A stretch of 42,447 nt of DNA. Source: Candidatus Thorarchaeota archaeon (GTDB lineage Archaea; Asgardarchaeota; Thorarchaeia; Thorarchaeales; Thorarchaeaceae). Made by a program: the position numbers and the translations under genes. Shown one piece after another: positions 2,924 through 27,313 of the stretch. The DNA is taken from the NCBI GenBank assembly GCA_048884785.1, contig JBHLQM010000025.1:1-42447 (forward strand), written 5' to 3'. The notes under the pieces were generated by a model. That model was not told the origin of the DNA. It saw only the letters and a program-made list of their open reading frames with translations, and ran no database searches. Within the stretch, counting starts at the first letter, position 1, and every line of letters starts with the position of its first letter.

Positions 2924-3975
2924 ATTTTCACGCCAAGCAGTTCTCTACTTAATCCACTATGAACTCGTATAGGTATATCATATAATACAGGTAATCCAAC
3001 TTGGCCAAAAATAGCTCCAAGATTCATCTCTTGACTGCCACATATACATGCTAATCTATTTGAGTCAGTAAACTGTGATAGTTGAATAGCAAGCCTCTCC
3101 ACAAGATCCACCGCAAATGCACCTTGAGTTGAACTCGTTCGGCCATACGGCGGATCTGTAACAATGCAATCAAAATCTGAAACAGGCAAAAATCTTGAGT
3201 CTCCTTGGATTAGTACGAAGTTTCTTACATTCAAACCAAGCAGGTTCATCTTTGCTCCTCTCAATAGTTTCCAACTCAAATCTATGCCAATAACTCGTGC
3301 ACCAAGAAGTCCTGCTTCGCATAAAATACCACCAGCTCCACAAAAGGGATCCAACACGGTGGAATCACTTTTCACGCCTGCAATATTACACATCACTCTA
3401 GCAAGAAGTGAATTCATCATGCTTGGGTGAAAGAAGGATTTTGTGCTCGGCGTTCTTTGTGCAAGTATTCCTCGCTGCTGTGACAAGAACCCCTCACAGA
3501 AAAAAACCCCCTCTTGAGAAACAACAATAATTATCCTAACACGAGGATTAGCAAGAGAAACAGGAGCTCTACTTAATGTCCTTATCCTTTTTCCAATCTT
3601 CCGCACCAGTTCTTGCCTTTGTTCATAGCTCAGCAAATCATCTATCATACGAAGCTCCACAGAGAAGCTCTCTCCAGACTTTATCAGTTCAGGCATTGAA
3701 TCATAAGCAATCTGATTAGCTGTTGAATCGATATCACTGAACTCCTGCAATACAGTACCTGTTTCTCGTACCAGAGCTGCTCTATTGAGTAAAGACAAAA
3801 CCGGACTTTTCGGACAATCGATTATTCCTATACGACGATGCCATGAGATTCTGGCATTACTTGCCTCTGTTTCAACTAAAGATTCCACTTCTGCCCTTGC
3901 AAGTTTGATATTATCGCCAGAAAGTACAACGAAGTATTTAGACAATATAGCATCACTCGTAGAGATTATCTCCAC
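2920..3975 (-). CDS. trm11: tRNA m2G10/m22G10 methyltransferase (THUMP + Rossmann MTase); start may be TTG at 3945
   Basis: FFHPSMM..LARVMCN, LDPFCGAGG, TDPPYGR, VHSGLSR. Confidence 0.9.
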   Translation of the reverse strand: MEIISTSDAILSKYFVVLSGDNIKLARAEVESLVETEASNARISWHRRIGIIDCPKSPVLSLLNRAALVRETGTVLQEFSDIDSTANQIAYDSMPELIKSGESFSVELRMIDDLLSYEQRQELVRKIGKRIRTLSRAPVSLANPRVRIIIVVSQEGVFFCEGFLSQQRGILAQRTPSTKSFFHPSMMNSLLARVMCNIAGVKSDSTVLDPFCGAGGILCEAGLLGARVIGIDLSWKLLRGAKMNLLGLNVRNFVLIQGDSRFLPVSDFDCIVTDPPYGRTSSTQGAFAVDLVERLAIQLSQFTDSNRLACICGSQEMNLGAIFGQVGLPVLYDIPIRVHSGLSRELLGVKI

Positions 3976-4717
3976 CTAGGAATATCCGCTGAAACTCCCC
4001 ATACAATGTCTCAAATCCCATTGCCTGCTTGCCAGAAACTGGAATCACGGTTGGGCCACCACCAATCTCACCAAGCATCCGAAGAACAGACGTCGAGAAC
4101 TCTCGTATCAATCCACTAGATGACGCATTAAGTGCATCTTCCAACAAATAAGAATCCGAAGACCAATCAACAATTCTGTCCAGTTCCTCCTCTGACAGAA
4201 TATCGGCCTTGCTTAATAGATTCAATTGCGGAATTCCAAATCGGATATTGATTGACATCCCTAACAACATGGATGACAAATAGCCTGAGGGTATGCGAGC
4301 CATATTAGAATCGAGTAAGTAAAGCGAGATTGCCAAATCAGACCCACTAAGTGAAGAAACCATGAGAGGGCCTGAGTTGCGATATGCAAAGAGTTCCATC
4401 TGACCTGGACAGTCAACCAAAACATAATCTCTTCCAAGATCTGTAATTTCATCACGAATATCATTGGCATGGCTTATTGCCATATCCAATGATGCAACGA
4501 GTGCTCCGTTTGGTCCAAGCCCAAATTGCTGCATTATCTCCCCATAGTCAACATGGTCGCGTATATCGACATCAGAAGTATAGGGAGGCGATTCAACACC
4601 TGGATCCAGATTTACAACGGCAACACTGATTTCCGAAGACACTAACCAGTCTTCAAGAGCGGCCGTGAGCAAAGACTTTCCAGATCCCGCTGTACCAACA
4701 ATGAACATAAAGAACAT
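3953..4717 (-). CDS. GPN-loop GTPase
   Basis: GTAGSGKS, NLDPG, GLGPNGAL (GPN), DCPGQMELF, SKAD; start trimmed to ATG 4717 (alternative 4729) to remove overlap with the divergent gene. Confidence 0.92.
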   Translation of the reverse strand: MFFMFIVGTAGSGKSLLTAALEDWLVSSEISVAVVNLDPGVESPPYTSDVDIRDHVDYGEIMQQFGLGPNGALVASLDMAISHANDIRDEITDLGRDYVLVDCPGQMELFAYRNSGPLMVSSLSGSDLAISLYLLDSNMARIPSGYLSSMLLGMSINIRFGIPQLNLLSKADILSEEELDRIVDWSSDSYLLEDALNASSSGLIREFSTSVLRMLGEIGGGPTVIPVSGKQAMGFETLYGEFQRIFLGGDNLYE

Positions 4718-4847
4718 ACAAGAAACCATTTCATGTTCCTCTTTGAGTTCTTTGGTCTGGATATGAAACGAATAATTTCGACACAAGACGAATTTTTGAT
4801 GCAAACTTGCAACAACTCTTATCTTGAAGAGAATAGAAATTGAAACC

Positions 4848-5591
4848 ATGGATCAAAGTGAGGCACTCCAGCGACTTGCAGAAGCAATGGCAGGCGAAAT
4901 ATGTCTGGCTGAGAATGATCCCGGTGCCGTGATGAAACGGTGGCGAGAAAGATTTCAGATATCGCAAAAGAATCTAGCCAAACATCTTGAGGTTTCTCCG
5001 TCGGTGATAAGTGATTATGAGAGCGGGCGAAGGAAATCACCGCGAGTCGAAACAATAAAGAGATTCGTTGAAGGGCTAATTGAGATGGATGCGGCTAGTG
5101 GCGGAAGAATTGCCATGGCCCTAGAGAAGCTAGTGACCCCTGAGATAGCATCTGAAGCTATTCTTGACAGTAGAGAGTTTGGAGTACCATTTCCTGCACG
5201 ACTTCTTGCGGATAGGCTTGACTGCAAAGTACTTACACACAAGAGTCTCTTGGACCGTGACATATATGGATATACAGCATTGGATAGCATCAAGGCAATA
5301 GTTACGCTGACCCCCCAACAGTTGTTGCGTCTCTACGGAGGAACAACACAACGTGCCGCCATCCTGACAAACGTGAGTACAGGACGGTCGCCCATGGTGG
5401 CAATTAAAGCTAGTCAGATTGGAACCTCAGTTGCAGTGAAACCTGCAGTTGTAATTCTCCAAGGTGTAAAGGAGTTAGACCCCCTAGCAGTAAGAATTGC
5501 TGATAGCATACACTTGCCTCTCTGTGTATCAGAAATCAAAACCCCAGAAGAGCTTGTACGAGAACTCAGAACATTTGACCCTCATAAATGA
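4848..5591 (+). CDS. XRE-family HTH transcriptional regulator (COG1709-type, DRTGG/HPr-kinase-N-like C-terminal domain)
   Basis: KRWRERFQISQKNLA...SVISDYESGRRKSP; GYT.LDS, VSTGRSPMVAIK. Confidence 0.88.
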   Translation: MDQSEALQRLAEAMAGEICLAENDPGAVMKRWRERFQISQKNLAKHLEVSPSVISDYESGRRKSPRVETIKRFVEGLIEMDAASGGRIAMALEKLVTPEIASEAILDSREFGVPFPARLLADRLDCKVLTHKSLLDRDIYGYTALDSIKAIVTLTPQQLLRLYGGTTQRAAILTNVSTGRSPMVAIKASQIGTSVAVKPAVVILQGVKELDPLAVRIADSIHLPLCVSEIKTPEELVRELRTFDPHK

Positions 5592-6953: not shown

Positions 6954-6960
6954 TTATATA
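6954..6960 (+). promoter_or_regulatory. Putative TATA box for the roadblock-DENN-GTPase operon
   Basis: TTATATA about 50 nt upstream of the 7013 start, in a 103-nt intergenic gap. Confidence 0.45.
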
Positions 6961-7012
6961 GTCAACCGAGAGATTCATCAATGGACCACAATCAAGGTCC
7001 GGAGCTGAGACT

Positions 7013-7960
7013 TTGACTGATGATCTCAATGAAGCCTTGCAGAACATCAAGATGACTACAGGAGTCGAGAATGTAGTCCTAATCCAGAAAGATGGACTAC
7101 CTGTTGCAAGTGCAGGTGTATGGTTTAGCAAGGAAGAGGTTTTTGCAGTAGCATCATCTACTTGTGCAATCTTCGGTGTTGCAAAATTGATACATGGAAA
7201 CTTCAAGTATCTCTTAATGGAATCAGAAACATCCAAGGTCTTTCTGGCATCTCTTCCAAACAATCCTGATTATTTCCTAGCGATTACAACTGCGCCTAGG
7301 GTGAACTTAGCCGCACTTTTCATCGAGATGCGTGACAGTTTTTCCCGTATCTCATATTTGCTAAAGCAACATATCGATGGTCGACTTCCCCCACTGCGTT
7401 CATATAGTTCAGAAGAAACTCAGAAAGTATTGAGTGGATTTTCAGTTGCAGAAGGCAACGCCCCCTCTTATTCCACATCACGCTCAATGATATCCCTTGA
7501 CCGTTCTCAGGCTCTCGGTCTTCGATCCATTCTTCGACAGTTGCATGACAGTATACCCAACATTGATTCCGTGTTTTTGTCCCTTAGCGGCGGCGTCAGG
7601 GTGTCATTAGATGGATTCACGAATGATAGACTTGCAGCTATGTCATTCGCACTACATGATGCATCTGAACGGGTAGTTCGAACACTCAGGAATAGTTCAC
7701 TTCAGACCGTTTTATGTGAAACAGATGACACGCGTCATTTCATCTATGCCGTTCCTAATGGAGTGTTTAGTTTGTGGGTGAAGCGTGACACACAAAAATT
7801 AGGTCTCATGCGACTTCTGTTGAAGCACTACATCGCAGAAACTCAGAGAATTCTTAGTTCGGCTTCAGTGACTCGTCCGGCATTGCCCCAAGAATTACGT
7901 GAACTAATACTTTCCGAACGTCCCAAGAGGGATCTTATTGTAGCGAGGCGAAATACATGA
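7013..7960 (+). CDS. Tandem Roadblock/LC7 (MglB/LAMTOR-like) domain protein
   Basis: Domain 1 (aa ~1-119): GVENVVLIQKDGLPVAS...VNLAALF; domain 2 (aa ~165-280): IDSVFLSLSGGVRV...LAAMS.AL...KLGLMRL. Confidence 0.82.
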   Translation: MTDDLNEALQNIKMTTGVENVVLIQKDGLPVASAGVWFSKEEVFAVASSTCAIFGVAKLIHGNFKYLLMESETSKVFLASLPNNPDYFLAITTAPRVNLAALFIEMRDSFSRISYLLKQHIDGRLPPLRSYSSEETQKVLSGFSVAEGNAPSYSTSRSMISLDRSQALGLRSILRQLHDSIPNIDSVFLSLSGGVRVSLDGFTNDRLAAMSFALHDASERVVRTLRNSSLQTVLCETDDTRHFIYAVPNGVFSLWVKRDTQKLGLMRLLLKHYIAETQRILSSASVTRPALPQELRELILSERPKRDLIVARRNT

Positions 7961-8877
7961 GTTATTCAATACTAAATCTTATCGAAATAATGAACGATGA
8001 GTTTCCTCTTCTGTTGAATTCGATCCTCAATCGAATTCCCATATTAGTCATAGGTGATGACATTGAACTGGTAGATGATATGGTAGAGAGTGTAATCTCT
8101 CTCAGTCCCCACAGACACAAGATGGTTTTTTGGAGAGACTTCACTGCAGAAGATGAAATCATCGCTGTCTGGGAGGAAGAAAAGCACAACTACGAAGTGA
8201 ATCGTACAGTAGTATGCTGCCTTGCCTCAAATATGAGGCTCGCATTGGAGAGAATAAAGAGATTCAATGGATGGATAATAGGAATCCCTGTAGGTTACAG
8301 TTCCATGGGACTGAAGGTGACGGAGGACAATCTCAAGGAAATACAGACGCACATCTTGCAGATTTCAAAAGCCTGCGGAATTTTAAAACTCTCGTCCCCT
8401 TCTTCCATGGAATTTAGTCTTCTCAATGTTGAGCAAGGCGGACTTGAAGTTGAAAAAAGAATTGTGGATAAGATTCTGACACGAAAGAACCAATCATTGG
8501 AAAGGATACGTCGCTTGCTCAGTAAATCTCTCCGTGGATCAAATATCTCTGATGGTATAATGAATGCTGTACTAAAGCTAGATGACGAATCAGAGAAGAT
8601 TACACATGATATGTTTGTTGAAGAAATCAGTAACTTTGTACACGCTGCAAGAAGAGCTGTGACACTACTCTCTCGAATAAGACTGGCAAGAGAACTCGGA
8701 ACATCCACCGTTCTCACAGAGAGGAATCTTTACGAAGCCATTGGTTGGGAGGGCGGCGAGCTGACTGATCTAATTCGTTTCATTCATGCAGAATGGCATG
8801 AAGACTTCTCAGATTGCGTCAAACTTGGAGCCCTCTCTGGACTCGGAGCATGGGTAGATAGTATGTGGGGTGCCTAG
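7957..8877 (+). CDS. Hypothetical protein, putative cDENN/dDENN (folliculin C-terminal-like) fold
   Basis: FPLLLNSILNRIPILVIGDDIELVDDMVESVISLSP and GWIIGIP resemble the cDENN pattern; ATGA-coupled to the roadblock gene. The CDS is secure, the fold call is inference. Confidence 0.55.
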   Translation: MSYSILNLIEIMNDEFPLLLNSILNRIPILVIGDDIELVDDMVESVISLSPHRHKMVFWRDFTAEDEIIAVWEEEKHNYEVNRTVVCCLASNMRLALERIKRFNGWIIGIPVGYSSMGLKVTEDNLKEIQTHILQISKACGILKLSSPSSMEFSLLNVEQGGLEVEKRIVDKILTRKNQSLERIRRLLSKSLRGSNISDGIMNAVLKLDDESEKITHDMFVEEISNFVHAARRAVTLLSRIRLARELGTSTVLTERNLYEAIGWEGGELTDLIRFIHAEWHEDFSDCVKLGALSGLGAWVDSMWGA

Positions 8878-8888
8878 GAGGAGTAGAC

Positions 8889-9470
8889 GTGATTGTCGAC
8901 TATGGAAATAGGACTGTTGGACTAAAAATCGTCTTTTTCGGACCTGCAATGAGTGGAAAAACCACATCAATCAGATGGTTGTTCAGAAGCTTGGACTGCG
9001 CTGACAGACTTACATCTATTGAAAATACCGTGGGCCGTACAATGTTCTGTGATTTTGGAACCATCCCATTCTCTCTGGGAGATAGTTGGACCATCAATGC
9101 ACACGTTTGGTCTGCTACCGGACAAGATTTCTACCGCTCCACTAGAGAGGTAGTTCTTGTAGGTGCAGATGGTATCGTATTCGTTGCAGACTCACAAGTA
9201 CACCTCTTAGACGAAAATCTGGCTAGCTGGAACGAACTTATGTCACTTTTGTCGGAAGAAGAGCGTCCGTTGCCAATCGTTGTCTGCTTGAATAAGCAGG
9301 ACCTTCCAAACGCAATAGATGAGGAGCGATTAAGGAGCTATCTCAGACTTCCTGCATCAATACCTGTTTTGAGAAGTGTTGCTATGAATGGATTGAATAT
9401 ACTTGAAGCATTTGAGATTCTATTTCATGATGCTATGCGAGCAGGTGCAATGATGCAACCATTACACTGA
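8889..9470 (+). CDS. mglA: MglA-family small GTPase
   Basis: KIVFFGPAMSGKTT, RTMFCDF (intrinsic Arg finger), Asp-less G3 SATGQ, GADGIVFVADSQ, NKQDL; GTG 8889 after SD GGAGGA. Confidence 0.85.
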   Translation: MIVDYGNRTVGLKIVFFGPAMSGKTTSIRWLFRSLDCADRLTSIENTVGRTMFCDFGTIPFSLGDSWTINAHVWSATGQDFYRSTREVVLVGADGIVFVADSQVHLLDENLASWNELMSLLSEEERPLPIVVCLNKQDLPNAIDEERLRSYLRLPASIPVLRSVAMNGLNILEAFEILFHDAMRAGAMMQPLH

Positions 9471-9584: not shown

Positions 9585-11261
9585 TTGGAGCAAAATGGAA
9601 CAAGTACCAAATTCATATTTGTTACTGGTGGTGTTCTGTCAGGCATTGGTAAGGGTGTAACAACAGCATCAATTGCCAAGCTCCTACAGTTTAGAGGGTA
9701 TCGGGTCAAAATAATGAAGATTGATCCATACCTGAATATTGACCCTGGTACTATGAATCCAGTAGAACATGGAGAGGTATTTGTTACAGATCAGACTTGG
9801 GTCTTCAAACCAGCTACTGACTTTGAATTTGTGATATCTGAAATAGATCTTGATTTTGGGACCTATGAAAGATTCACTGGTATAGAATCGCATCCCTCTG
9901 ATAATATCACATCGGGCCAAATCTATCTCTCCGTGATTTTGGGCGAACGAAAGGGAAGCTATCTTGGAAGAACTGTACAAATCATCCCACACGTAACAGA
10001 CTACATCAAGGAGAGAATATGGGCGGTAGCCTCTAGAAGCCCAATACCCGATGTGGTCCTAGTCGAGATTGGCGGTACAGCTGGCGACATAGAAGCCATG
10101 CCTTTCCTAGAGGCAGTCCGTCAACTTGCTCGTGAGATTGGAAGAAACAGAGTTGCCTTTGTTCATGTAACACTTGTACCATACATGACCTCAGTGGGTG
10201 AATTCAAGACAAAGCCAACACAGCATAGTGTGAGAACTCTCCAAGGACTGGGCTTACAACCTGATATTATCATATGTAGAGCAGAAAAGAAACTGGAAGA
10301 ACAAGCAAAAAGGAAGATTGCTTTATTCTGCAATATTCCTGAGGAGAGTGTCATATCTAATCCGGATATTAGTATCGTCTACCAATTACCGCTTTCATTC
10401 GAAGAACAGGGGCTTGGAAATACGATTATTAGTCAACTTGAGCTTGAACAACGGATTCCAGATACGGCAACCTGGAAAAAAATGGTGGAGTCATATCAAG
10501 GCACAACCAAGTCCGTACGGATTGCCATGCCTGGCAAGTATACTACTCTAAGTGACTCCTACAAGAGCATAAACGAAGCACTAAATCACGCAGCAGCAAT
10601 GTGCGAAGCACGAGTAGAAATAAAATGGATTGAAACAGAAGAAAGATGCAGCCTTGATTGCATTCATCAGGATCTTGAGGAAGTCGATGGAATTTTACTT
10701 ACGCCAGGTTTTGGAGAGCGTGGCGTTGAGGGGATGATAAATGCCGCAATAGTCAGTCTGGACTCCAAAATCCCCTTCCTTGGAATATGCTATGGCGCTC
10801 AACTTGGTACTGTTGCTTTTGCTAGGCATGTGATGGGTTGGAATGGCGCTCATACAACTGAGGTTGACAGCAACAGTCTGTACCCAGTTGTAGACCTAAT
10901 GGATGAACAAAAGAATTTGGAAGCAAAAGGCGGTACAATGCGATTAGGCGGTCATGAAGTGAGAATCAAAGAAGGGACGAAGCTTCGCGGATTGTATAAT
11001 TCTACTGAAGCTAGAGAACGTTTCAGGCATCGTTTCCATTTGATTCAACGATATGTTGGTAGAATGAAGGAGAAAGGAATGATTGTATCCGCATATGACC
11101 TCACTGGGAAAATCATCAATGCACTTGAGCTAACTAATCATCCATTCTGGATAGGCGTGCAATATCATCCCGAATTCAAATCCCTGCCCGGAAAACCACA
11201 TCCTCTTTATCTTGGGTTAATAAGGGCGGCTCTAGAACATAATTCCAAGAGGCGAAAATAG
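9585..11261 (+). CDS. pyrG: CTP synthase
   Basis: KFIFVTGGVLSGIGKG, KTKPTQHSV, GICYG, QYHPEF. Confidence 0.98.
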   Translation: MEQNGTSTKFIFVTGGVLSGIGKGVTTASIAKLLQFRGYRVKIMKIDPYLNIDPGTMNPVEHGEVFVTDQTWVFKPATDFEFVISEIDLDFGTYERFTGIESHPSDNITSGQIYLSVILGERKGSYLGRTVQIIPHVTDYIKERIWAVASRSPIPDVVLVEIGGTAGDIEAMPFLEAVRQLAREIGRNRVAFVHVTLVPYMTSVGEFKTKPTQHSVRTLQGLGLQPDIIICRAEKKLEEQAKRKIALFCNIPEESVISNPDISIVYQLPLSFEEQGLGNTIISQLELEQRIPDTATWKKMVESYQGTTKSVRIAMPGKYTTLSDSYKSINEALNHAAAMCEARVEIKWIETEERCSLDCIHQDLEEVDGILLTPGFGERGVEGMINAAIVSLDSKIPFLGICYGAQLGTVAFARHVMGWNGAHTTEVDSNSLYPVVDLMDEQKNLEAKGGTMRLGGHEVRIKEGTKLRGLYNSTEARERFRHRFHLIQRYVGRMKEKGMIVSAYDLTGKIINALELTNHPFWIGVQYHPEFKSLPGKPHPLYLGLIRAALEHNSKRRK

Positions 11262-12424
11262 TGGATAAGAATCTCGATAAAATGCTATCACTTCTAGTCG
11301 AAGAGATAGAACGAGTCGAGGATACAAGAGCTCACTTTGGTAACGTGATGAATGAAATTAAGAGCTCACTAGATTTAGCCAGATTCCCTGCTCTGGTTGG
11401 TGAAGCTGTTGAATCACAATTCATAACCAAAATACAGCCTGCTAAACTAGCAGGTTTAAGCATTGCCGGAGTTGACGGTGGCCTTATGCGAAAACGCTTT
11501 CGATCAATGGATTTGCTATTGACTCGCGGTGTCGCAGTGATCTTTCAATTTACGGGTGATGAAGGCCCTAGAGTTGAATTCTTTCCTGATCCCTTTCCAG
11601 AACCAAATGCGAAATTAATCATGCTCTCCATGTCAAGCCCAGAATTAGACCAATTATCCTCTTTGGAACGCATAGCAACAGAACTTAGAGTGACCATATC
11701 CGCATTAGATGAGTTCCATGCCGATATCGTTCTTCTAGATGGGAGTCTTTTCTATCACCCTCGAGACCGCCCACAAACTGGATCTGTCGCAGAAGAGAAG
11801 TTCCAAGAAGTGGTGGCTCTATATAGACAACTCTACAACAAAGTAGCAAAGAAAAAGACAACATTGGTGGGAATTGTGAAAGATAGCCGGTCTACCAGAA
11901 TTGTCAGCACACTTGGTGATATCTTGCCGCATATCCTGAGGAATCCAGCAATATACGAGAAAATGCAGGGTGTTGATTATCGATGGCTTCTAAAAATATC
12001 TCGGGACGGTGACTTATTAGATACCTTTCTCGAGGAAGGTGAGAGAACCTTCGCATTTAGATACTCAGGCGAGTTACCTCAAAATTCTAACCTAATTCAC
12101 AATGACCTTTTGACTTGGGCTTCTTCTATTTGGGTGACTTACCTTAAAACCGCACAAAATGACATTCCGCTTCGGGTAGAGGTCATGGTGAAATCTGATG
12201 GCGCAGAAGGAATTCAGCAGCTGAACCGTACTCTGTCAGCCATACTTCCACTATCATATCAGCACCCAGAGTTCGGTCTACCCACTCCCATATTAGAGGC
12301 TGATGCTAGAGCGCGAATTACCAATAATGAAGTCCGATTAATAGTAGACCGACTAATGGCTCTCTCAGGCCTGACCTATTCGACACTAGAAAAACGAAGG
12401 TCTAGAAACCCCTTTGGAGGGTAG
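11261..12424 (+). CDS. nurA: NurA 5'-3' nuclease
   Basis: GVDGG, LLDGSL, GIVKDS, G.P.P..EAD..A; directly upstream of herA. Confidence 0.88.
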   Translation: MDKNLDKMLSLLVEEIERVEDTRAHFGNVMNEIKSSLDLARFPALVGEAVESQFITKIQPAKLAGLSIAGVDGGLMRKRFRSMDLLLTRGVAVIFQFTGDEGPRVEFFPDPFPEPNAKLIMLSMSSPELDQLSSLERIATELRVTISALDEFHADIVLLDGSLFYHPRDRPQTGSVAEEKFQEVVALYRQLYNKVAKKKTTLVGIVKDSRSTRIVSTLGDILPHILRNPAIYEKMQGVDYRWLLKISRDGDLLDTFLEEGERTFAFRYSGELPQNSNLIHNDLLTWASSIWVTYLKTAQNDIPLRVEVMVKSDGAEGIQQLNRTLSAILPLSYQHPEFGLPTPILEADARARITNNEVRLIVDRLMALSGLTYSTLEKRRSRNPFGG

Positions 12425-12428
12425 AAAT

Positions 12429-13946
12429 TTGTCAGCGAATCAATCTAGATCCCGACTTGGAACAGTTGTTTGTACAAATGAAGGGCCAAATGTATCCGAG
12501 TTTTCATTTGTATTAGAGGGCGGAGCAAATGAAACATCAGTTCGTCGAGGCGAATTCGTAACGGTTGAAACGGACTTCGGAACTGTTGTGGCCAGAGTGC
12601 AAGATCTCATTCGGACAAATAGATATTTTCAACATGCAGAAGCAGTCCGCGAATACCAATCCCGTGGAGAGCCGCTTAGGTCCATATTTCCTACTGACAG
12701 ATGGCAATATACAGTCGGACAGACTAAAGTTGTAGGATTTTGGATTAATGATCGAACGGTCAGACCATATACGTCTGTTTCACCTGGTGCCGTTGTGAGA
12801 AGAGCTGACGAAGATCTCTTGTCAAGATTTCTTAGGTTGGACACCGAGGCTGGTCTGAATCTTGGTACAGTAGCTCATCATGAACTTGAGTTTCGCCCTT
12901 CTGTTGATCGACTATTGTCAAAGCATTTGGCTATCCTAGCAATGTCGGGAGCAGGGAAGAGCTACTTTGTGTCCGTTATGCTAGAGGAGTTGATGGCAAG
13001 AACAAAGAGTCAAGGACGCCTAAGTGTTGTTGTTGTTGATGTCCATGGTGAGTATACATACTTGAAAGACCTCAAACCACAAAATCTTGGTCTGCCAGAT
13101 GGATCATTCGAAGTCGAACATATCCGAGGCTCATATATTCAGATACCCGTCCAATCTCTTACAGCTGATGCCTTGAGTTCCTTTGTGGCAGGAATGTCAG
13201 ATGTTCAAAAACGCGACTTAAGACGGGCAATCTCCGACATCGGCGATCGTTTCGAGAACGGATACACACTCTCCGATTTGATTACATTAGTAAAGGATGA
13301 TGAAACTATTAGCAAAAACACTAGAGAAGCATTGGTTGGATGGCTTATTAACCTTGAAGACACAGGGCTATTTGGGAAGGAGGGAGTTCCAGAGTTAAGA
13401 AACATAATTCGACCTGGAAAAATAACACTGATTGATTTGAGTGATTTTGTCAGTCTCAAGAAAAAGCAAATAATAGTATCGCACTTAGCAAGTGAGCTAC
13501 TTTACCATAGACGTCAAGGGAATATCCCGCCGTTTCTACTAGTTCTTGAAGAGTCTCATCAGTTCTGTCCAGAGAGTCGGCATGAATTAGCCCTACCAAA
13601 GACACAGATAGAAACTATAGCAAGAGAAGGACGAAAATTCCATGCATTGCTATGCCTCATAACGCAAAGACCAGTCAAACTATCTACAACTGTTCTTAGC
13701 CAATGTAGCAATCAAGCTATTCTTAGATGCACCAATCCATACGATTTGGATCACATAGGACGGTCTAGCGAAGGCATAGATCGTTCGTCGCTTGATGCAA
13801 TCACAACTCTTGAAGTCGGTGAGGCCCTTTTTGTGGGTGAAACTGTATCAGTTCCTACATTCGTCAAGATTCGTAGAAGACGAATTGAGCCCGAATCACA
13901 AACAGGAAACCTCTCTGAGGCTCTAAAGAAGGCTGATAAAAAGTAG
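12429..13946 (+). CDS. herA: HerA DNA translocase/helicase
   Basis: N-terminal HAS barrel, HLAILAMSGAGKS, DVHGEY, LEESHQF, IAREGRKF, TQRP; TTG 12429 after SD GGAGG. Confidence 0.92.
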   Translation: MSANQSRSRLGTVVCTNEGPNVSEFSFVLEGGANETSVRRGEFVTVETDFGTVVARVQDLIRTNRYFQHAEAVREYQSRGEPLRSIFPTDRWQYTVGQTKVVGFWINDRTVRPYTSVSPGAVVRRADEDLLSRFLRLDTEAGLNLGTVAHHELEFRPSVDRLLSKHLAILAMSGAGKSYFVSVMLEELMARTKSQGRLSVVVVDVHGEYTYLKDLKPQNLGLPDGSFEVEHIRGSYIQIPVQSLTADALSSFVAGMSDVQKRDLRRAISDIGDRFENGYTLSDLITLVKDDETISKNTREALVGWLINLEDTGLFGKEGVPELRNIIRPGKITLIDLSDFVSLKKKQIIVSHLASELLYHRRQGNIPPFLLVLEESHQFCPESRHELALPKTQIETIAREGRKFHALLCLITQRPVKLSTTVLSQCSNQAILRCTNPYDLDHIGRSSEGIDRSSLDAITTLEVGEALFVGETVSVPTFVKIRRRRIEPESQTGNLSEALKKADKK

Positions 13947-23257: not shown

Positions 23258-23321
23258 AAATGAGAGCTTGTTGTAAAGCCTATTTTACCGTATGGGCTTT
23301 TGGAGTTAGAAAAGGAGAAAG

Positions 23322-23437
23322 TGGCAGCTTGAGGCCCTGTCACGGGCTCGCGCACCGCACATCTGCCTCAACGGGCCGAGACTTAACTTCTGAGGTCGGA
23401 ACGAGATCAGGTGAATTCTCGGTCCTATGGCCGCCAT
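23322..23437 (-). rRNA. rrf: 5S rRNA (not linked to 16S/23S)
   Basis: Minus strand TGGCGGCCATAG...CACCTGATCTCGTTCCGACCTCAGAAGTTAAG...GCGCGAGCCC...GCTGCCA; helix I TGGCGGC/GCTGCCA; pyrimidine tract downstream. Confidence 0.93.
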
Positions 23438-23461
23438 CAATTGTGGCGACACTTTTTTTGG

Positions 23462-27226: not shown

Positions 27227-27313
27227 TGGCGCCGAGGATGAGATTTGAACTCATGCATCCGAAGATACCGGTTTTCAAGACCGGCGCCGTAATCCGGGCT
27301 TGGCTACCTCGGC
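27227..27313 (-). tRNA. tRNA-Ser(TGA), type II with encoded CCA
   Basis: GCCGAGG/CCTCGGC acceptor, CCGGT-CT-TGA-AA-ACCGG anticodon arm, ATC-TTCG-GAT variable arm, TTCAAAT T-loop, G discriminator. Confidence 0.96.

Follow-up and report, generated by a model that had tools for sequence, protein, structure and literature searches.

The stretch of DNA analysed here, hereafter the window, comprises 42,447 nucleotides (nt) of a contig of a Candidatus Thorarchaeota archaeon (JBHLQM010000025.1 of GenBank assembly GCA_048884785.1). Within it, three co-directional genes on the forward strand, between positions 7013 and 9470, encode a tandem Roadblock protein, a protein without Pfam family and a GTPase (Table 1). 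A preliminary description of this stretch had noted how tightly the three are packed, and the coordinates bear this out: the first two overlap as ATGA, the TGA stop at 7958–7960 lying over the ATG start at 7957–7959, and the second is separated from the third by a spacer of 11 nt, GGAGGAGTAGAC, which contains a Shine-Dalgarno-like GGAGG. The longest open reading frame (ORF) for the third gene has 201 amino acids (aa) and opens at 8865; since same-genus orthologues begin at the residue matching 8889, the upstream start is unlikely and we take the GTPase to begin at the latter position. Each of the three genes has hundreds of homologues under conservation and they are hence real genes, not chance ORFs.

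The region upstream of the first gene contains a TATA-box-like element, which had already been described as the trio's own TATA box. In an alignment of nine loci from the same family the box is kept in all nine, reading TTATATA in eight and TTAAATA in one, and its function as a promoter is putative. The GTGGAGA just ahead of the box, the GGAG site, a GGxGCTGAG block and the TTG start codon are likewise conserved across the nine loci, while the remaining spacer has diverged. The upstream elements are compatible with an archaeal promoter composed of a transcription factor B recognition element (BRE) and a TATA box, followed by a short leader. Altogether, the tight packing carries signals for translational coupling and a conserved promoter-like box, which counts for one putative switch unit.

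Table 1. Coordinates of the three genes, their putative expression signals and other features of the window; the last row gives loci of a GTPase gene from another family (f22).
Feature	Position	Strand	Remarks
Gene 1, tandem Roadblock protein P0001	7013–7960	+	315 aa, TTG start
Gene 2, DENN core P0002	7957–8877	+	306 aa, ATG start, TAG stop at 8875–8877
Gene 3, MglA-family GTPase	8889–9470	+	193 aa, GTG start; equals P0003 residues 9–201
GGAGG, putative ribosome-binding site	8878–8882	+	in the 11-nt spacer preceding the GTPase start
TATA-box-like TTATATA	6954–6960	+	putative operon promoter; purine-rich BRE-like GTGGAGA just 5'
Shine-Dalgarno-like GGAG	7001–7004	+	9 nt ahead of the gene 1 TTG
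GPN-loop-type GTPase	3953–4849	-	Pfam ATP_bind_1, E 1e-56; about 2 kb upstream of the operon
Stand-alone 5S ribosomal RNA (rRNA) gene	23319–23438	-	Rfam
Transfer RNA (tRNA) gene	27230–27313	-	Rfam
Arf/Roc-like GTPase loci of f22	L039:2296–2766, L042:1975–2436, L045:6413–6883, L051:3918–4388, L054:3050–3733

The product of the first gene had been called a double Roadblock protein. Indeed, Pfam Robl_LC7 matches it in two stretches (40.9 bits, against a gathering cut-off of 23), and an AlphaFold2 (AF2) model of the 315-aa chain, built on 24 orthologues (predicted local distance difference test, pLDDT, 79; predicted template modelling score, pTM, 0.74), contains two complete alpha-beta-beta-alpha-beta-beta-beta-alpha units, formed by residues 2–119 and 164–284. 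These two domains are unequal, and the linker between them, about 40 residues long, is modelled with low confidence. In fold searches with VIA, an aligner independent of Foldseek that was run against 48,161 PDB chains, the N-terminal unit (residues 1–121) matches Myxococcus xanthus MglB (6hjm_A) with a Z score of 13.1 and a root-mean-square deviation of 1.7 Å over 118 aa, and a Streptomyces Roadblock protein with a Z score of 13.1 too. Asgard Roadblock structures, Thermus thermophilus MglB and the Roadblock domains of LAMTOR and Rag proteins follow, those of LAMTOR and of the Rag C-terminus at Z 8–11. The C-terminal unit is more diverged, with weaker fold matches (Z about 9); the profile over positions 168–288 matches Roadblock3 of MK-D1 (9jue) with an E-value of 5e-9 and MglB with 0.01. 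A full-text literature search for the PDB code 9JUE returned no relevant paper. Since two unequal Roadblock units lie in one chain, the gene 1 product is, as modelled, a single-chain, asymmetric Roadblock pseudo-dimer with an MglB-like N-domain, and it does not correspond to an MglB-style homodimer of single-domain chains.

The third gene encodes a G domain with Arf, Roc, Ras and Gtr1 matches in Pfam. In a phmmer search against the PDB, however, MglA of M. xanthus (E 1.5e-30) and of T. thermophilus (9e-30) stand first, with Arl and Rab proteins next at only about 1e-8. Alignment with MglA shows the hallmark residues: a P-loop GPAMSGKTT, an NKQD motif, a switch I sequence GRTMFCDF that aligns with DRTLFFDF of MglA and keeps the Arg-Thr pair with the intrinsic arginine, and a G3 motif SATGQ that aligns with TVPGQ, with Ser in place of Asp and the switch-II glutamine kept. 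The intrinsic arginine finger of switch I is the residue that we take to correspond to Arg53 in M. xanthus MglA. The protein is not a Rag GTPase, as it carries no C-terminal Roadblock domain and reaches 21.0 bits with Gtr1_RagA, below the cut-off of 22. Furthermore, a Roadblock gene shares the operon with the GTPase at every full-length locus examined. Judged by score and hallmark residues, the gene 3 product is thus a member of the MglA family, as the preliminary description had proposed, and is not Rab-like.

Less straightforward is the 306-aa middle protein, for which Pfam and NCBIfam searches assigned no family; a RecX match with an E-value of 0.076 was dismissed. A HMMER search of 1.84 billion representatives gives 66 clusters (50% identity) for its family, whose proteins have about 300 aa and whose named members are all from Asgard archaea. 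From 39 of the family members, AF2 yields a confident model (pLDDT 88, pTM 0.85) that consists of an N-terminal helix (residues 5–24), a cDENN-like alpha/beta domain of five to six strands (about 28–156) and a dDENN-like helical domain (164–306). The preliminary description had called this protein DENN-like, and the five best matches among the PDB chains searched with VIA are all DENN proteins, namely DENND10 (Z 13.4), FLCN (12.8 and 12.7), C9orf72 (10.9) and SMCR8 (10.8), with DENND1A (9.7) and FNIP2 (7.2) further down. FLCN is also the top Foldseek match (E 2.7e-3, probability 0.99); DENND1A/B and one chain from the C9orf72–SMCR8 complex come shortly after it. The language-model neighbours are the Pfam families C9orf72-like, SPA, Folliculin_C, SMCR8_C, Avl9 and DENND11, with scores of 0.90–0.94 to the C9orf72-like, SPA and Folliculin_C clusters, and by shape the ESM Atlas returns FAM45/DENND10-like, SMCR8, AVL9 and DENN proteins and a Heimdall cluster with a Folliculin domain, the matches to DENN, Avl9, SMCR8 and FAM45 having template modelling scores of about 0.5. 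Pfam Folliculin_C is touched by two of the 39 family members (E 4.8e-4).

Alignments with the DENN proteins cover model residues 1 to about 285, that is the cDENN and dDENN parts only, and begin in the targets past their longin lobes (FLCN 345, DENND10 157, C9orf72 203, DENND1A 170). A longin (uDENN) lobe is absent from the middle protein, in which a single helix (5–24) precedes the first cDENN strand. Since the fold and the Foldseek, VIA, language-model and Atlas matches converge on cDENN and dDENN, we conclude from the model that gene 2 encodes a DENN core devoid of a longin lobe. Within it, the near-invariant residues R26, P28, R53, R83 and W106 all stand at the starts of model strands 1–4 and would hence share one edge of the sheet; as candidate interface residues they are a lead only.

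An alternative would be that the middle protein is a degenerate relative of P-loop or RecA-like nucleoside triphosphatases (NTPases), of the PilT, VirB11 or clamp-loader kind with a helical lid, that resembles DENN by convergence and serves, for example, as a GTPase effector. Secretion ATPases, a RuvB-like helicase and clamp loaders do match residues 1–160 at Z 7–9.7. Such partial matches are expected, since the alpha/beta domain of DENN proteins is known to have a minimal P-loop-NTPase-like topology without the nucleotide-binding residues (PMC3521125). However, the ATPase matches end at about residue 160 and do not exceed Z 9.7, whereas the five DENN proteins at the top of the list match over both domains at Z 10.8–13.4, and language-model features and the Atlas shape search also lead to families of the DENN clan. 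A search of the middle protein for Walker A and B motifs found none, the first strand being followed by VIGDD. In view of the missing Walker motifs and of DENN matches that span both domains, we rejected this alternative, which we consider very improbable.

Of 400 Asgard genomes, 239 contain a match to the DENN-core profile, usually a single one, and 51 of the 85 genera are represented; with completeness of 90% or more and contamination of no more than 5% required, the count is 67 of 90 genomes. A survey of the gene neighbourhood, suggested in the preliminary description, found the middle gene conserved together with the other two: the order Roadblock–DENN–GTPase is kept at all 46 other places examined, in 13 Asgard families (42 distinct places from the main set, plus L048 and L051, plus L054 and L055; L001, L023 and L055 are cut by contig ends and contain part of the trio only). 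Wherever the contig reaches, a tandem Roadblock gene lies directly upstream of the DENN gene and an MglA-type gene directly downstream, all on the same strand, with intergenic distances from small overlaps to about 60 nt. The order stays intact where protein identity to the trio of the window has fallen to 23–35%. The flanking genes of the window, an HD-domain hydrolase upstream and cytidine triphosphate (CTP) synthase, NurA and HerA downstream, are common only within its own order.

DENN core and orthologous GTPase are, moreover, present or absent together, by family. The GTPase search is bimodal: families with the DENN gene have a GTPase at E 1e-41 or better, while in those lacking it the search finds nothing at 1e-30 or no more than paralogues at 1e-31 to 1e-34. 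In f8, the largest family without the operon, DENN core and orthologous GTPase are found in 0 of 31 genomes, and two genomes of the window's family (62% and 71% complete), the only ones there with no DENN match, have no orthologous GTPase either. A Pfam search in f8 for the Folliculin longin (PF11704), the mark of a fused FLCN-like protein that might stand in for the split one, gave nothing above cut-off. As related genomes are not independent samples, these counts are given without statistics. The dependence leaves some room for the notion that the three genes are mere neighbours, by chance or by shared ancestry and with no functional coupling, given that the sampled loci come mostly from two large families and are not independent. 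Yet an order that persists in 13 families at such low identity while the flanking genes change, with overlaps or gaps within about 60 nt everywhere and a DENN gene that comes and goes with its GTPase, brings this explanation close to refuted.

The arrangement varies in f14: in addition to the trio, this family has a second locus, at which an MglA-type gene comes directly after a tandem Roadblock gene and the DENN gene is absent from between the two. In a maximum-likelihood tree, the GTPases of these DENN-less loci group with the f14 trio GTPase (support 81/68), which suggests a lineage-specific duplication minus the DENN gene. Distant paralogues of the DENN core also exist: P0181 (E 2e-6) and P0175 (4e-9) have no adjoining GTPase, and a further distant relative, P0193 (cluster representative P0165, E 7e-13), adjoins one. 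Several frames of about 500 aa that resembled DENN–GTPase fusions proved to be either in-frame but separate ORFs or Roadblock–GTPase pairs without DENN.

The genome of the window has one tandem Roadblock gene, one DENN core and two further MglA-like paralogues. One of these (G000:C27:19000–24000; L062:1868–4907, minus strand) has 187 aa, is 38% identical to the GTPase of the window and clusters with three single-domain Roadblock genes (127, 153 and 135 aa) and a Sec23/24-like gene (314 aa); two of the three Roadblock genes also touch the LAMTOR3/MAPKK1_Int and LAMTOR5 models. The other (G000:C41:24587–25105; L063:2267–3319, minus strand) is a G domain, 42% identical, in the C-terminal half of a 350-aa protein whose N-terminal 170 aa have no Pfam match.

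Contrary to the preliminary description, which knew of no functional account of the three-part unit, the unit is already known as a computational prediction from 2020/2021. Liu et al. (bioRxiv 10.1101/2020.10.19.343400; Nature 2021) predicted an operon of Roadblock, small GTPase and DENN genes conserved in most Asgard archaea, compared it with FLCN/Ragulator, noted that the GTPase is not a Rag and proposed a function as guanine nucleotide exchange factor (GEF). With all three components in common and Asgard-wide conservation, the window almost certainly holds a copy of this operon. Our assignments differ in that the Roadblock protein, there called ‘LAMTOR1-like’, is a tandem with an MglB-like N-domain according to its model, and that the GTPase, there ‘Rab-like’, belongs to the MglA family by its score and hallmark residues. 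New beyond that work are thus the MglA-type GTPase, the tandem pseudo-dimer Roadblock protein, the longin-less DENN core with its mirrored gene order (see below), the figures for the distribution and the DENN-less duplicate. Literature searches for experimental work or biochemistry on the three-gene operon found none; stand-alone Asgard Roadblock and Rab-like proteins have been solved structurally (PMC10933270), and Asgard longins of the FLCN/SMCR8 type have been discussed (PMC12290439).

Among characterized systems, bacterial MglA–MglB of M. xanthus and T. thermophilus shares with the trio the Ser or Thr in place of the G3 Asp, the switch-I Arg, the switch-II Gln and an adjoining gene for a partner with Roadblock fold. 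In contrast to the homodimer of one-domain MglB chains, however, the Asgard protein has two unequal Roadblock domains per chain, and bacteria have no DENN partner but the accessory proteins RomR/RomX, RomY and MglC. Eukaryotic DENN modules (the Rab35 GEF DENND1, FLCN–FNIP, C9orf72–SMCR8 and DENND10) match in cDENN and dDENN at Z 9.7–13.4 and are likewise associated with a small GTPase and with Roadblock or longin platform domains. They differ from the Asgard DENN core, which has no covalent longin lobe, occurs once per unit instead of as a DENN heterodimer, has a putative client of the MglA type instead of Rab, Arf or Rag, and shows no significant match to the Pfam DENN clan on P0002. Finally, Rag–Ragulator also uses pairs of Roadblock domains (LAMTOR2/3 and 4/5) as a platform for a small GTPase, whereas the Asgard GTPase lacks a C-terminal Roadblock domain and is outside the Rag/Gtr family. 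The earlier proposal that the trio is intermediate between MglA/MglB and Rag/Ragulator/FLCN–FNIP is a reasonable inference on its evolution, but the GTPase is MglA-like, not Rag-like; as a whole, the interpretation given in the preliminary description is partly supported.

With gene structure, fold assignments, MglA hallmark residues, strict synteny and family-level co-occurrence directly observed, we consider it likely that the locus is the Thorarchaeota-type copy of an Asgard-wide three-gene GTPase-switch operon, made up of an MglA-type switch, a Roadblock platform and a DENN-core regulator. Physical association of the three products, the allotment of GEF and GTPase-activating protein (GAP) roles to the partners and the cellular process under control are what we infer from these data rather than observe in them. 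An MglB homodimer reportedly binds a single MglA-GTP (2:1) and positions the Arg and Gln of MglA itself. The switch of the operon would be the MglA-family GTPase, which has a catalytic Arg and Gln of its own, and the tandem Roadblock protein most likely replaces the MglB homodimer as a covalent MglB-like dimer that would bind the GTPase 1:1. In the bacterial system, MglB is described as the GAP of MglA, with which it forms a complex (Miertzschke 2011, as cited in PMC3521125), and displays both GAP and GEF behaviour (PMC13408092). Like bacterial MglB, the Roadblock platform may stimulate GTP hydrolysis and possibly modulate exchange. The DENN core, for its part, most likely docks on the Roadblock protein, the pair recreating a longin/Roadblock–DENN module, and/or on the switch regions of the GTPase, where it would bring about nucleotide exchange or couple the switch to an input or effector. 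As its output, the unit would govern which nucleotide state the MglA-type switch is in.

Several points weigh against such a three-part switch. Sequence-level support for DENN in the middle protein is faint, as apparent from the Pfam result. The clients of eukaryotic DENN proteins are Rab, Arf and Rag, and we know of none of the MglA type. The catalytic Arg of FLCN and SMCR8 resides in the longin lobe, the part that is missing from the Asgard DENN core. In f14, the second locus has no DENN gene, and a Roadblock–MglA pair is therefore apparently workable without an adjacent one. Lastly, a search run twice, with a single-protein query and then with a 39-sequence alignment, detected no protein of 537–2000 aa in which the DENN core is joined to a Roadblock, longin or GTPase domain; this is a weak negative.

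The same components could also be read as a GAP complex like FLCN/FNIP or C9orf72/SMCR8, not a GEF, in which the Roadblock pseudo-dimer would stand in for the longin heterodimer and contact the G domain, with the DENN core as no more than a scaffold. FLCN, SMCR8 and C9orf72, each a subunit of a longin-DENN GAP complex, are among the best structural matches of the DENN core; the Roadblock N-domain resembles MglB, itself a GAP; and a GTPase with its own Arg finger has no need of an Arg in trans. However, DENND10, whose activity is unknown, and DENND1A, the Rab35 GEF, match about equally, and because the closest DENN structures mix a GEF, subunits of GAP complexes and a protein of unknown activity in this way, the fold alone does not separate GAP from GEF. 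Moreover, two Roadblock domains stand here against one DENN, unlike the 2+2 composition of the eukaryotic complexes. We hold a GAP complex of this kind to be possible but rather unlikely.

A further, more specific form of the three-part switch concerns the origin of eukaryotic DENN proteins. As platforms for GTPases, longin and Roadblock domains are related to each other, and in all eukaryotic DENN modules a longin lobe precedes the DENN core on the N-terminal side (PMC3521125). The 5'-to-3' gene order of the operon, Roadblock and then DENN, mirrors this N-to-C domain order. Tentatively, and with some doubt, one may thus picture a split DENN module in which tandem Roadblock protein and DENN core assemble into the equivalent of longin–cDENN–dDENN on an MglA-type GTPase, and from which the fused architecture of eukaryotes and of the Heimdall type would have arisen by fusion of such neighbours.

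Some observations concern the surroundings of the operon. In the Loki-type families f21 and f22 it lies divergently beside a 16S rRNA gene (L045:1366–2857(-), L038:935–2429(-), L051:1–317(-), L039:6306–6623(+)), whose 5' end and the tandem Roadblock gene start lie about 330–640 nt apart. Breaks of the assemblies within the rRNA gene account for the short distance, 0.9–2.4 kb, between a contig end and the beginning of at least 35 of the listed f22 DENN matches. No such arrangement is present in the Thorarchaeota-type window, and a functional tie of the operon to ribosome synthesis is speculation. In f22, a gene for an Arf/Roc-like GTPase of about 227 aa, about 31% identical to the GTPase of the window, is located on the opposite strand, about 1 kb past the downstream end of the operon (Table 1). 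In the window itself, the genes for a NurA nuclease and a HerA-type (DUF87) helicase at 11261–13946, whose ends overlap, follow just past CTP synthase and are an ordinary archaeal end-resection pair, and the GPN-loop-type GTPase upstream is probably unrelated to the operon.

In summary, what the window offers is not a discovery but a clean, complete and experimentally tractable orthologue of a predicted operon, well suited to bench work. Membrane traffic and nutrient signalling in eukaryotes are run by DENN, longin/Roadblock and small-GTPase modules (Rab GEFs, folliculin–Rag–mTORC1, C9orf72–SMCR8), and no system would be simpler than a compact prokaryotic version for learning the effect of a DENN core on a GTPase. 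The trio is small, encoded together and confidently folded, and comprises a single GTPase, a Roadblock platform in one chain and a DENN core that lacks longin. If the picture of a split DENN module is true, MglA-type GTPases would be the ancestral clients of DENN regulators, and the trio could show how the eukaryotic regulators were put together.

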